In this document: piece by piece, positions 2,725 to 5,827 of the stretch | Numbering within the stretch: position 1 is the stretch's first letter | How the letters are laid out: every line of letters begins with the position of its first letter | Virus record (IMG/VR): IMGVR_UViG_2531839529_000008 | From: a virus | Lineage: Duplodnaviria; Heunggongvirae; Uroviricota; Caudoviricetes | Length of the DNA: 23,343 nucleotides | Strand: one strand, 5' to 3' | The notes under the pieces: generated by a model | What the model was told of the DNA's origin: nothing | Databases searched by the model: none | The model's input: only the letters and a program-made list of their open reading frames with translations | Program-made: the position numbers and the translations under genes

Positions 2725-2892
2725 TCAGGCGGCTTGGTGTTCTTTCAGTTCTTCAATTCGAATATTGGTTACGTCTGCATGTGCTATCTGCGCCCATATC
2801 ATCCAGTGGTTATAACAGTCGTTGATGTTCTCTGCTTCGATAACCCTGTTGAATGGCTCTCCATTCCATTCACCTGTGACTCGGAAGTGCAT
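2725..2892 (-). CDS. Small hypothetical protein (55 aa), at the position of the lambda 55-codon ORF just upstream of xis
   Basis: Hand translation of the minus strand: MHFRVTGEWNGEPFNRVIEAENINDCYNHWMIWAQIAHADVTNIRIEELKEHQAA; below the 60-aa track cutoff. Confidence 0.45.
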   Translation of the reverse strand: MHFRVTGEWNGEPFNRVIEAENINDCYNHWMIWAQIAHADVTNIRIEELKEHQAA

Positions 2893-2975
2893 TTATCATC
2901 TCCATAAAACAAAACTCGCCGTAGCGAGTTCAGATATAATTTCCACCAAAGGCAGTAGTTGCTTGATGCTAAGAA

Positions 2976-3404
2976 TTATTCAATATCTATTCCTGTAATA
3001 TCTTTTATCTTTTTCCTTGCAAAGCCTTTTGCTAGTGATTTTGAAACACTCATAAGTGTACTAATTCCCTCATCCTTAAAGTTTGTTTTTATAGCTTGCC
3101 AGACATCCTTTTGACGTAAGTCAGCAATAAAATCATGCCCTCTTGCTGTCAACCTCAGTGGTACTTCGATCCAACTATATCCAACACCTTCCCCTAACGC
3201 TTTGGACAATATATGACCGAACCCAGGTTTTCCATCAACCCTGACTATTAATTCGTAGTCACATAATAATCGCATATGGAAAATAAAATCTTGGTCATAT
3301 CTATTAAAGCCATTATCCTCTAGTTCACTAAGCATCGTGTCAGGGCCACGAGTTTTTTCGAATGCGATAAGTAGATCTTTTAGATATTGCTGGTCTAATT
3401 TCAT
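2976..3404 (-). CDS. Hypothetical protein (142 aa), AT-rich accessory gene in the ea region
   Basis: Track ORF; GGAGG Shine-Dalgarno about 6 nt upstream of the ATG at 3404; function not recognised. Confidence 0.6.
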   Translation of the reverse strand: MKLDQQYLKDLLIAFEKTRGPDTMLSELEDNGFNRYDQDFIFHMRLLCDYELIVRVDGKPGFGHILSKALGEGVGYSWIEVPLRLTARGHDFIADLRQKDVWQAIKTNFKDEGISTLMSVSKSLAKGFARKKIKDITGIDIE

Positions 3405-3432: not shown

Positions 3433-3771
3433 TTATATCATTAATTTTGTTTCGTGCCAGCCTTTGGTCACCCAGCATTGTGAGTCACCATTACACGGGC
3501 ATGAATTAACAGGAACTCTCTCGCCGCACTTACCGCACCGTTTTCTGCTGATCGATTTTATACGCCAGCGCACACGTGCATCATCCTGGCGGCTCAGTAA
3601 CGCGATGTACTCACCAAACTCGCAAGGCGCACGCCTGAAGCGACGCGTGGCACAGTTACGCTCCAGCATTTCAATTTCCTGAGCATCAAGTACAAGCTCC
3701 AGCTTACGCATACCGGATGATGCTTGCTTGGCTCTCTGATCGGCTTTGTGCTCTGTTGCTGATTTAGCCAT
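3433..3771 (-). CDS. Hypothetical Cys-rich putative zinc-binding protein (112 aa; alternative start at 3711 gives 92 aa)
   Basis: Track ORF; C-terminal cluster CGKCGERVPVNSCPCNGDSQC; AGGA upstream of the ATG at 3771; only 28 nt upstream of the 2976-3404 gene, suggesting one operon. Confidence 0.55.
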   Translation of the reverse strand: MAKSATEHKADQRAKQASSGMRKLELVLDAQEIEMLERNCATRRFRRAPCEFGEYIALLSRQDDARVRWRIKSISRKRCGKCGERVPVNSCPCNGDSQCWVTKGWHETKLMI

Positions 3772-3965
3772 TCTGCTTTTCCTGCATCAGGAGAAAGACA
3801 ATCATGGCGGCGCGGATACTTCCGGTATCTTTTTACGCGATATTCCCCTTCAATGGCACATACAAGAAGAGAGCCATCAACAGGAGTGATTGAGGAATCG
3901 ACAACCAGCAACGCTTAATTATCTATAGTGTCGTATTTGCTTCATAAAATATGGCGAATAACACA

Positions 3966-3998: not shown

Positions 3999-4064
3999 TA
4001 TACCTACTTCCTAGAGATAATTCTATGGAGGCATTAAATCAATACTGTCATTGGTAATATCATA

Positions 4065-4679
4065 TTATCTAAAAGTCTTTCCACTTTTAACATCTAGGTA
4101 TATTCTGTTCGACAACGTCATTCCTCCGCAATATGTGAAATAGATGTTTTCACCCTTATTGCTTGATGCCATCCACCCTCCGATTTCCTTAAAATCGCTT
4201 TCCGTGCAGACCCCTTCATTTATTAACTTCCTAGCTGCCGAAGAAAACTCTTTTTTGTATATACGGTAGTCATCAGATCCTTTGATTAAAGTATCATCTC
4301 CGCTCGCATTTTCAGCAGGATCTGATGGCCTTTCACTGCTAAGATCACTAAGTTTAACCCATTCTGAAAACTTGCCATTAACGATTCCATTTTTTCTTGT
4401 GCAGGATTTATTACCTTCTTTAATATATTCGCTTTCCCCTCCAACACATGAGGCTGAATATGGCTCAGTTATACGAACCCATTCACCTTTTTTTTCTAGA
4501 AAATCTACGCCTTCCCTGAAAAATAGTTTCCCAGCCACTCCACATTTACTTGAAGGGCAGGTATGTCTTTCCGTTCGATCAACAACAACCCATAGTTTTG
4601 ATTCATTTTTTGCCATTGCCGATGGTATTTGAGATGAGACAATTAACGTAAGCCCTAAAATTAGTATTGATTTTTTCAT
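4065..4679 (-). CDS. Secreted or periplasmic Cys-rich protein of unknown function (204 aa)
   Basis: Track ORF; N-terminal signal peptide MKKSILILGLTLIVSSQIPSAMA with AMA-K cleavage motif; six Cys in the mature part; AAGGA Shine-Dalgarno 8 nt upstream; AT-rich. Confidence 0.65.
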   Translation of the reverse strand: MKKSILILGLTLIVSSQIPSAMAKNESKLWVVVDRTERHTCPSSKCGVAGKLFFREGVDFLEKKGEWVRITEPYSASCVGGESEYIKEGNKSCTRKNGIVNGKFSEWVKLSDLSSERPSDPAENASGDDTLIKGSDDYRIYKKEFSSAARKLINEGVCTESDFKEIGGWMASSNKGENIYFTYCGGMTLSNRIYLDVKSGKTFR

Positions 4680-4977
4680 TGTAATTTCCTTTTACTTTTT
4701 ACAAAGCGTTTAATCATGGCTGATTATCTCTAAGTGTAGTAACAGCCTTGTGCGAAACATGTTACCAAATCGCCATTTCAGTGTATCCGCAGTTAGGCTG
4801 CCACTTCAAGGATTCCTAATTACATGGTACGTAAGCGTAAAATCCCGTTGGTTGGCGGGTAATAACTCTGATCAAATCTCCCTTGTCTTTTGCTCTTACG
4901 TATGCAGCTCTTGTGTATTCAACCCAGGCCTCCAGTTCAGCAATACGCTTACTTCCATCCGAGATAACACCTTCTAC

Positions 4978-5229
4978 TCACGCTGCTCGTTGAGTTTTGA
5001 TTTTTGCTGTCTCCAGCTCAACACGCAGTTTCCCCACCGTTAGCGCAATATCCTCGTTCTCCTGGTCGCGGCGTTTGATGTATTGCTGGTTTCTTTCCCG
5101 TTCATCCAGCAGTGTCAGCACAATCGATGGTGTTACCAGCTCATGGAAAAGGTCCGCGTCAAATCCCCAGTTGTCAGGCATTGCCTGCTCTGCCGCTTCA
5201 CGCAGTGCCTGAGAGTGAATTACGCTCAC
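4978..5229 (-). CDS. Hypothetical protein (83 aa) at the lambda ea22 position, ending at an in-frame TGA that is followed by 53 further sense codons
   Basis: Track ORF; start overlaps the stop of the upstream TraR-like gene (ATGA); hand translation beyond the TGA (4819-4977) stays open and protein-like. Confidence 0.5.
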   Translation of the reverse strand: MSVIHSQALREAAEQAMPDNWGFDADLFHELVTPSIVLTLLDERERNQQYIKRRDQENEDIALTVGKLRVELETAKIKTQRAA

Positions 5230-5447
5230 TTCGAACCTCTCTGTTTACTGATAAGCTCCAGATCTTCCTGGCAACTTGCACAAGTCCGACAACCCTGAAC
5301 GGCCAGGCGTCTTAGCTCATCTATGGGATCGCCACACTCACAACAATGAGTGGCAGATACAGCCTGGTGGTTCAGGCGGCGCATTTTTATTGCTGTGTTG
5401 CGCTGTAATTCTTCAATTTCTGATGCTGAATCAATGATGTCTGCCAT
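5226..5447 (-). CDS. TraR/DksA-family C4 zinc-finger protein (73 aa), lambda Orf73-like
   Basis: Track ORF; CxxC-x17-CxxC motif (CECGDP...CRTCASC); same size and position as the lambda TraR-like orf73. Confidence 0.7.
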   Translation of the reverse strand: MADIIDSASEIEELQRNTAIKMRRLNHQAVSATHCCECGDPIDELRRLAVQGCRTCASCQEDLELISKQRGSK

Positions 5448-5545
5448 CTTCCATTAATCCCTGAATTGTTGGTTAATACGCTTGGGGGTAAATGCGAGCA
5501 ATAAAAAAGGAGCCTGTAGCTCCCTGATAATTTTGCTTTTCATGT

Positions 5546-5827
5546 TCATCGTTCCTTAAAGACGCCGTTTAACATGCCGATTGCCAGGCTTAAATGAGTC
5601 GGTGTGAATCCCATCAGCGTTACCGTTTCGCGGTGCTTCTTCAGTACGCTACGGCAAATGTCATCGACGTTTTTATCCGGAAACTGCTGTCTGGCTTTTT
5701 TGATTTCAGAATTAGCCTGACGGGCAATGCTGCGAAGGGCGTTTTCTTGCTGAGGTGTCATTGAACAAGCCCCATGTCGGCAAGCATAAGCACACAGAAT
5801 ATGAAGCCCGCTGCCAGAAAAATGCAT
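5546..5827 (-). CDS. Hypothetical early protein at the lambda orf61 position (alternative start at 5761 gives 71 aa)
   Basis: Track ORF in the pL operon upstream of exo; start codon uncertain. Confidence 0.45.
   Translation of the reverse strand: MHFSGSGLHILCAYACRHGACSMTPQQENALRSIARQANSEIKKARQQFPDKNVDDICRSVLKKHRETVTLMGFTPTHLSLAIGMLNGVFKER

Follow-up and report, generated by a model that had tools for sequence, protein, structure and literature searches.

An interrupted ea22 gene in a lambda-like phage, very probably a truncated allele produced by two small indels

A virus of the Caudoviricetes (IMG/VR record IMGVR_UViG_2531839529_000008), analysed here over a stretch of 23,343 nucleotides (the window), carries at the ea22 position a gene that ends at an in-frame TGA, after which the same reading frame stays open for several dozen codons. 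Such an arrangement raises the question of how the stop codon came about, and of whether the sequence behind it is, or ever was, part of a protein. A preliminary description of the locus, made from the letters alone, had proposed a recent nonsense mutation or a recombination joint in an ea22-like gene, with a read-through site as a less likely possibility. The analysis reported here indicates that, very probably, the gene is an ea22 allele truncated (pseudogenised) by two indels, and that this allele is fixed both in a common lineage of lambda-like E. coli prophages and in Escherichia phage Chlobot.

According to the list of open reading frames (ORFs), the truncated gene occupies positions 4978..5229 on the minus strand. 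Its GTG start (5227-5229) overlaps the TGA stop of the upstream TraR/orf73 homologue as GTGA, and 83 sense codons lead to the TGA at 4978-4980, as the preliminary description had stated. The 83-aa product ends with ...ETAKIKTQRAA. When positions 5229..4816 of the minus strand were translated in a single frame, the 83 codons and the TGA were followed by exactly 53 sense codons, the number given previously, and then by a TAG at 4816-4818. The 53-codon continuation reads VEGVISDGSKRIAELEAWVEYTRAAYVRAKDKGDLIRVITRQPTGFYAYVPCN. The base directly 3' of the TGA is a G, giving the stop context UGA-G.

The genes on the minus strand of the window make up a lambda-like early-left (pL) operon, in the order cIII thermoregulator (Rfam RF01804, 8251-8309, minus), kil, gam, bet, exo, DUF1317, DUF1382, a hypothetical gene, a TraR-like gene and ea22. 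The TraR-like gene, of the TraR/DksA zinc-finger type (5226-5447, minus), is directly upstream of ea22, while on the 3' side of ea22 there are a 204-aa gene, several small or fragmentary genes, xis and int. The interrupted gene thus has the location of an ea22 gene, i.e. in the exo-xis region, downstream of the orf73/TraR homologue and on the strand transcribed from pL. A promoter and terminator scan of positions 4000-5600 gave no signal above shuffle expectation; a single terminator-like hairpin with a T-run is present at 5507-5525 (minus), just upstream of the TraR-like gene, and a count of one is no higher than in the shuffled sequences.

In the literature (PMC7093339, PMC10834534), Ea22 is described as a non-essential protein that is expressed early and favours lysogeny. 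Its short N-terminal segment is followed by a long coiled coil and then by a C-terminal domain that is variable; in lambda the protein forms tetramers, and its C-terminal domain is inactive by itself. Lysogenisation frequency, survival of the infected host and the kinetics of induction have been measured for lambda and Phi24B (PMC7093339). The 83-aa product of the window matched the Ead_Ea22 profile PF13935 with 74.8 bits (cut-off 27, E 1.3e-20) over residues 3-76, covering profile positions 2-110 of 139, and matched phrog_250 with an E value of 9.8e-37, which agrees with the earlier suggestion of a disrupted ea22-family gene. The architecture on a single ORF that is described for Ea22 (PMC10834534) is not what the window shows, because the TGA occurs after 83 codons encoding the N-terminal segment and about two-thirds of the conserved coiled coil, and the remainder of the coiled coil, like the C-terminal module, follows only downstream of the stop. 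On sequence grounds, the gene is assigned to the Ead/Ea22 family as a truncated or pseudogene allele and not as an intact member. It should be noted that the C-terminal tripeptide K/R-G-E, reported for the Ea22 proteins compared in an earlier study (PMC7093339), is absent here. The remnant and the intact alleles carrying the same module all end in ...YVPCN, while many other ea22 alleles in the IMG/VR sample end in IKGE.

The ea22 gene of lambda (182 aa, PF13935) occupies the same slot after the TraR/orf73 homologue, with the same GTGA overlap, on the same strand and in the pL operon. Over the first ~300 nt of the gene, its DNA is 94% identical to the window (370-nt query including the end of the upstream gene), and it has in common with the window the N-terminal segment and the conserved coiled-coil segment. 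The two genes differ in that the reading frame of lambda is intact, whereas in the window an insertion (+1) and a deletion (-4) disrupt it and the TGA is met after 83 codons; moreover, the C-terminal module of the window (37 aa, ending in VPCN) is unrelated to the C-terminal domain of lambda.

The absence of stop codons in 53 consecutive triplets is in itself poor evidence for coding, as it would occur in random sequence with a probability of about (61/64)^53 = 0.08. The nature of the tail is apparent from its relatives. The first 16 codons after the stop (VEGVISDGSKRIAELE; 4930..4977, minus) correspond to the end of the conserved Ea22 coiled coil, and their DNA is still ~95% identical to lambda. 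Similarity to lambda ends near 4930, the usual mosaic boundary of ea22 genes (PMC10834534), and from there the remaining 37 codons (AWVEYTRAAYVRAKDKGDLIRVITRQPTGFYAYVPCN; 4819..4929, minus) form the remnant of a C-terminal module, referred to below as the AWVEY module (AWVEY...VPCN). At the DNA level, the whole tail matches the 3' end of an intact Ea22-like gene of 141 aa (locus L007, gene 2791-3216, encoding P0001) with 100% identity. That gene ends at the identical TAG, which identifies the TAG at 4816..4818 (minus) as the original stop of the intact allele; the identity also runs past the TAG, inside the aligned stretch.

At the protein level, the tail peptide matches the intact proteins P0001, P0003-P0005 and P0151-P0158. 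The 37-codon module is identical in P0001, P0004, P0005 and most of the 138-aa proteins P0151-P0158, and differs by one to three residues in P0003, P0154 and P0158. Residues 16-44 of the tail match phrog_21749 and phrog_20174 (E about 1e-8), and a stretch of 43 aa is 56% identical to an otherwise unrelated 220-aa protein of phage Cyrano, with the common core motif WVExTRAAYVRAKDKGxLxRVxT. As for a start codon for the tail alone, the only in-frame ATG, GTG or TTG found by reading the sequence is a TTG that would give 19 aa. The protein-like appearance noted in the preliminary description thus has a concrete basis: judged by its DNA, protein and PHROG matches, the tail is real former coding sequence.

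In the Cyrano protein (locus L147; OV696614.1, CDS 802-1464), a 220-aa hypothetical protein, the motif takes the form WVE(Y/C)TRAAYVRAKDKG(D/E)L(I/T)RV(I/V)T. The same protein is found in the ~108 kb phages Cyrano, CMS-2020a and PhiR41_1, and the motif seems to be a small shuffled protein module.

The origin of the stop became apparent when the DNA was aligned with lambda and with intact alleles. Pairwise and multiple alignments showed that a run of four A's in lambda and in the intact alleles (ancestral context ...GCAAAATCAAAA...) has become five A's in the window (5001..5005, minus), i.e. a +1 frameshift. In addition, four base pairs (TTAC) are missing at the junction 4975|4974 (4974..4976, minus): lambda and L007 have GAGTATTACGAAGG or GAATATTACGAAGG, while the window has GAGTAGAAGG. 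The spacing between the extra A and the deletion is 27 nt (4975..5001, minus), and all the bases between them are identical to lambda, so that these nucleotides are ancestral sequence read out of frame. In the window they read ATC AAA ACT CAA CGA GCA GCG TGA GTA (IKTQRAA*V), whereas the ancestral reading is TCA AAA CTC AAC GAG CAG CGT GAG TA and the ancestral protein has SKLNEQREYY there; nine codons thus substitute for ten residues in the protein alignment. The TGA at 4978..4980 was present all along, hidden out of frame in the ancestral CGT GAG. The extra A lies 21 nt upstream of it and, through the +1 shift, causes CGT GAG to be read as G-TGA, which exposes the stop. The TTAC deletion lies just 3' of the TGA; because the insertion and the deletion together amount to a net change of -3, they bring the tail back into phase with the head, still behind the TGA.

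These alignments decide against the two origins first proposed for the stop. An in-frame stop followed by a protein-like continuation is just what a nonsense mutation would be expected to look like, and ea22 genes are known to be mosaic (PMC10834534), which makes a recombination joint a reasonable thought. However, the stop has the same three bases as lambda and the intact alleles, and the differences consist of two indels flanking the stop; since no base of the TGA differs, there has been no nonsense substitution, and it is the +1 insertion that exposes the codon. As for a joint at the stop codon, the homology to lambda extends 48 nt beyond it, and the actual mosaic boundary with lambda (~4930|4929) is also found in the intact alleles. 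A single-base nonsense mutation or a recombination joint at the stop is therefore considered very improbable. The alignment to ea22 genes that the preliminary description had asked for, here made against lambda and the intact alleles, bore out the broken ea22 gene but not the kind of lesion proposed. That description had also pointed to homologues ending at the same position with unrelated sequence downstream as evidence that would speak against a disruption; every copy ending here was found to be followed by the same in-frame remnant.

Comparison with other Ea22 proteins puts the lesion in perspective. The intact proteins P0157, P0152 and P0001 (138-141 aa), which carry the AWVEY...VPCN module, have a tail identical to that of the window; their N-terminal segment is identical to the window in P0157 and P0152 and lambda-like in P0001, and P0157 differs by only two residues from the translation of the repaired window sequence. 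The intact AWVEY...VPCN alleles have the A4 run and the TTAC and form one uninterrupted ORF, whereas the window has A5 and lacks the TTAC. A different kind of shortening is represented by Ea22 forms of 100-103 aa (P0094, 211 contigs), common in E. coli prophages, which consist of the N-terminal segment and the coiled coil without a C-terminal domain. In these forms the coiled coil still has its ancestral SKLNEQREYYEGVISDGSKRIAEL end, and the protein terminates at the module boundary (...RIAEL), while the window allele stops ~20 residues earlier, after seven aberrant residues. The frequency of these short forms implies that loss of the C-terminal domain is recurrent in the Ea22 family.

As one of the two lesions falls in a homopolymer run, a sequencing or assembly artefact in an intact gene has to be considered. 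The other lesion, though, is a 4-bp deletion outside any homopolymer, and the same allele has been obtained repeatedly in many laboratories and on many platforms. A 601-nt query around the stop is 100% identical to Escherichia phage Chlobot (PP925838.1). At least 108 complete E. coli genome records, from chromosomes as well as plasmids, contain a 271-nt stretch covering both lesions with an identity of at least 99%, and among the records listed 40 out of 40 match it at 100%. The exact 83-aa product is present on at least 1000 contigs, and the double-indel junction was seen in 32 IMG/VR and 15 metagenome contigs. These independent replicates of the allele refute a sequencing error, and an artefact is to be regarded as practically out of the question.

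The distribution of the allele states was examined by two scans with gapped patterns. The first, directed at ea22 junctions with any C-terminal module in IMG/VR, listed 120 contigs, among which at least 90 had intact junctions, all with other C-terminal modules, and at least 30 had the double-indel junction, all with the AWVEY module. In the second, limited to the AWVEY module and extended to metagenomes, all 32 IMG/VR contigs had the double indel with the TGA (none was intact and none had the +1 insertion only), as did 15 of the 17 metagenome contigs, the other two being one intact allele (L142) and one with the +1 insertion only (L146). With the loci from the scan and the other copies taken together, the census of the AWVEY module amounted to 50 double-indel alleles with the TGA, two intact alleles (L007 and L142), one "+1 only" allele (L146) and one allele in which the TGA is replaced by TTA (L005).

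Two of these states call for caution. L146, with A5 and the TTAC still present, is a single 2.35-kb metagenome contig and could be a homopolymer error. L005, an ENA scaffold encoding P0002, has both indels and TTA for TGA, and hence an uninterrupted ORF of 137 aa; this state rests on a single short metagenome scaffold. Intact proteins with the tail and the ancestral ...AKSKLNEQREYYEGVISDG... (P0001, P0003, P0004 and P0005, and the 138-aa P0151-P0158) are rare, occurring on one contig each, whereas the truncated product occurs on at least 1000. When a synthetic "repaired" query of 272 nt was searched against complete E. coli genomes, the broken allele was the best match (98.2%), and no record with an intact module ranked above it. 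The module as such is present in roughly 128 complete E. coli genomes. The module-specific pattern gave no exact matches among the GTDB species representatives, a result that is uninformative on any spread outside E. coli. In 49 full-length copies, no fewer than seven divergent N-terminal modules precede the broken 3' block, which has therefore spread by recombination within the conserved coiled-coil segment.

A second apparent sense variant, P0061, which has Trp at the position of the stop, was rejected. Its contig (L006 = ENA ERZ27295177 k141_214511, gene 191-739, encoding P0061) has TGA at that position, and the locus does not translate to P0061, so that the Trp is evidently an artefact of gene calling with a code in which TGA means Trp. 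Gene calling of this kind can make a stop-interrupted gene appear intact in protein databases. A further variant, P0125 (93 aa, in the cluster of the 83-aa product), reads ...ETAKIKNSTSSVSRRCYLGWK, which suggests another indel, in a second A-run (TCAAAACTC), besides the first. The A-runs of this segment of ea22 seem to be prone to indels or to sequencing errors.

The accessory region around the gene holds some further observations. The 204-aa ORF directly downstream of the ea22 remnant (4065-4679, minus) has a signal-peptide-like N-terminus (MKKSILILGLTLIVSSQIPSAMA) and no Pfam match, its sole full-length match being phrog_8310, of unknown function; since it accompanies the AWVEY module both in L007 and in E. 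coli prophages, it may be a moron-type accessory gene. A 105-codon ORF (3594-3911, minus) begins with a sequence resembling the C-terminal portion of an S24 peptidase of the UmuD/LexA type, after which it overlaps the neighbouring 112-aa ORF (3433-3771, minus) in a different frame. It is labelled 'UmuD-like protein' in Chlobot, and 'DNA repair protein; incomplete; missing C-terminus' is the PGAP label for the corresponding stretch of E. coli prophages; after ea22, it is the second fragment of a gene in this accessory region. The block from DUF1317 to the gene before xis, with the broken ea22, is also found on large E. coli plasmids such as pECO-cbb3 (L004 = NZ_CP026206.1, 127250-132520), where its neighbours are a truncated rrrD lysozyme gene, trkG and an IS5 transposase. 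These neighbours indicate a prophage fragment that was apparently captured on plasmids.

If the stop is a by-product of a frameshift, one may ask whether the ribosome could undo the lesion, and the A-run at the first lesion might be taken as a hint of programmed frameshifting that repairs the gene during translation. Such a slip would not suffice. The TTAC deletion creates a TAG (4974-4976) in the ancestral (+1) frame, so that a +1 slip at the A-run runs into this codon and a second shift would be needed, and the third frame closes ~10 codons further on. With two frames closed at the site of the stop and the third shortly after, a single slip of the ribosome could not restore the gene. Reading the sequence revealed no X XXY YYZ heptamer, and the RNA around the stop shows no stimulatory structure. 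A run of five A's is also generally too short for efficient transcriptional slippage. Repair by programmed frameshifting is therefore hardly conceivable.

Read-through of the TGA deserves closer attention. Phage Qbeta provides an example of a gene with programmed UGA read-through, that of the A1 protein. Like genes of this type, the window has an in-frame UGA with an open and protein-like stretch behind it, but it differs from them in that its stop is absent from the intact homologues and was born of a frameshift, and in that neither evidence of constraint nor a recoding signal was found. Indeed, none of the intact homologues has a stop at this position, where sense codons encode ...NEQREYYEG..., and the TGA is confined to copies with the +1 insertion. 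Over 141 nt around the stop, the predicted RNA structure had a minimum free energy of -25.8 kcal/mol against a shuffle mean of -27.4 (z = +0.50), so that the fold is not an unusual one. UGA-G is not known as a notably leaky stop context in E. coli. The low rank that the preliminary description had given to read-through is thus upheld.

The same question was approached through the polymorphism of the 159-nt tail. Among 49 broken copies, which represent 11 haplotypes, there were five distinct non-synonymous changes (R95C, A97T, A108V, R125S and P135S) and one synonymous change (R125R), and no stop or indel. The density of substitutions is similar to that in 116 nt sampled 3' of the TAG. Polymorphism in the tail therefore leans towards neutrality, although six events provide little power. 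R125S also occurs in the intact alleles P0154 and P0158 and may thus predate the lesion.

Some observations do count against a plain pseudogene. The two indels, only 27 nt apart, sum to a multiple of three and look compensatory, and together with a tail free of stops and indels in all 49 broken copies they leave room for some benefit of the in-phase tail. Moreover, the TGA>TTA change in L005 is what selection for a full-length product would produce. One could accordingly imagine a leaky-stop gene with two products, mostly the 83-aa fragment and a little of a 136-aa protein made by near-cognate Trp insertion, the deletion having been selected because the net -3 restores the frame. The existence of the full-length variant and the large excess of the broken allele over the intact ones would fit this scheme, which also predicts a junction ...QRAA-W-VEGVISDGSK and the tryptic peptide AAWVEGVISDGSK. 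Against it are the features of the stop, the RNA fold and the UGA-G context discussed above, as well as the 5:1 ratio of non-synonymous to synonymous changes in the tail, which looks neutral. In addition, nine aberrant codons in place of ten coiled-coil residues would break the heptad register, and restoration of the frame is expected by chance in one case out of three. Taken together, these points make a leaky two-product gene improbable.

There is likewise only a slim chance that the TTAC deletion is a selected partial suppressor, with UGA misreading giving some 136-aa Ea22 bearing a nine-residue scar. If that were true, two Ea22 isoforms would be made at a fixed ratio, which could explain the excess of the broken allele over the intact one, and the TGA>TTA contig L005 would represent the next step along that path.

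The strand opposite to the tail also contains an ORF of 97 codons (4750..5043, plus), whose translation has the Cys/Ser/Phe-rich composition mentioned in the preliminary description. It was annotated by the pipeline of the depositor as a CDS (CDS0046), a 94-aa 'hypothetical protein' in the Chlobot GenBank record (window 4759-5043, plus), and one might argue from this and from its length that the real gene is the antisense one, of 94-97 aa (4750/4759-5043). Apart from its composition, we found no Pfam or PHROG match for it; its direction is against the early-left operon transcribed from pL; and a comparable open stretch, whose end shifts with the indels, is present opposite the intact gene. PGAP makes no call there in the RefSeq genomes. 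This ORF was consequently rejected as a gene and is most likely spurious, and it is very unlikely that the real gene of this locus is on the plus strand.

The broken allele is already annotated in RefSeq. Pseudogene DTO54_RS17820 (NZ_CP030939.1) is the same allele: it matches the 271-bp query with 100% identity, its flanking genes come in the same order, and the PGAP label reads 'ead/Ea22-like family protein; frameshifted; incomplete; missing C-terminus'. In the Chlobot GenBank record, by contrast with RefSeq, the gene appears as a CDS of 67 aa that starts at an internal ATG (window 4978-5181, minus).

The double-indel truncation that we prefer would have had the following history. The ancestor would have been an intact gene of ~138 aa, encoding the N-terminal segment, the coiled coil and the short 'AWVEY...VPCN' C-terminal module. 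An extra A in the A4 run would then have shifted the frame by +1, so that the ribosome would meet the TGA of CGT GAG after seven aberrant codons, and a deletion of TTAC directly 3' of the TGA would have brought the tail back into phase (net -3), but behind the stop. We infer that the +1 insertion came first; the series of alleles would run from intact, through +1 (ending at the TGA), to +1/-4 as in the window and, rarely, to TGA>TTA. The in-phase position of the tail would be a one-in-three coincidence.

In the early-left transcript from pL, translation would end at the TGA, and the 53 downstream codons would be an untranslated relic, basal UGA misreading aside. As predicted from the reading frame, the main product is most likely the 83-aa fragment of Ea22, comprising the N-terminus and a partial coiled coil, without the C-terminal domain. 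The pro-lysogenic function of such a truncated Ea22 would presumably be lost or reduced, and the broken allele may be tolerated because ea22 is accessory.

The finding matters little beyond annotation hygiene. The Chlobot annotation needs to be corrected to one ea22 pseudogene or to an 83-aa truncated ea22. More generally, an in-frame stop followed by an open extension can arise from two nearby indels summing to -3, and this possibility should be ruled out before a nonsense mutation or recoding is invoked. For studies of the exo-xis region, there is now a natural and very common ea22 allele without the C-terminal domain, along with its rare intact counterparts, and a comparison of the two could show what role the C-terminal module has in the decision between lysis and lysogeny.
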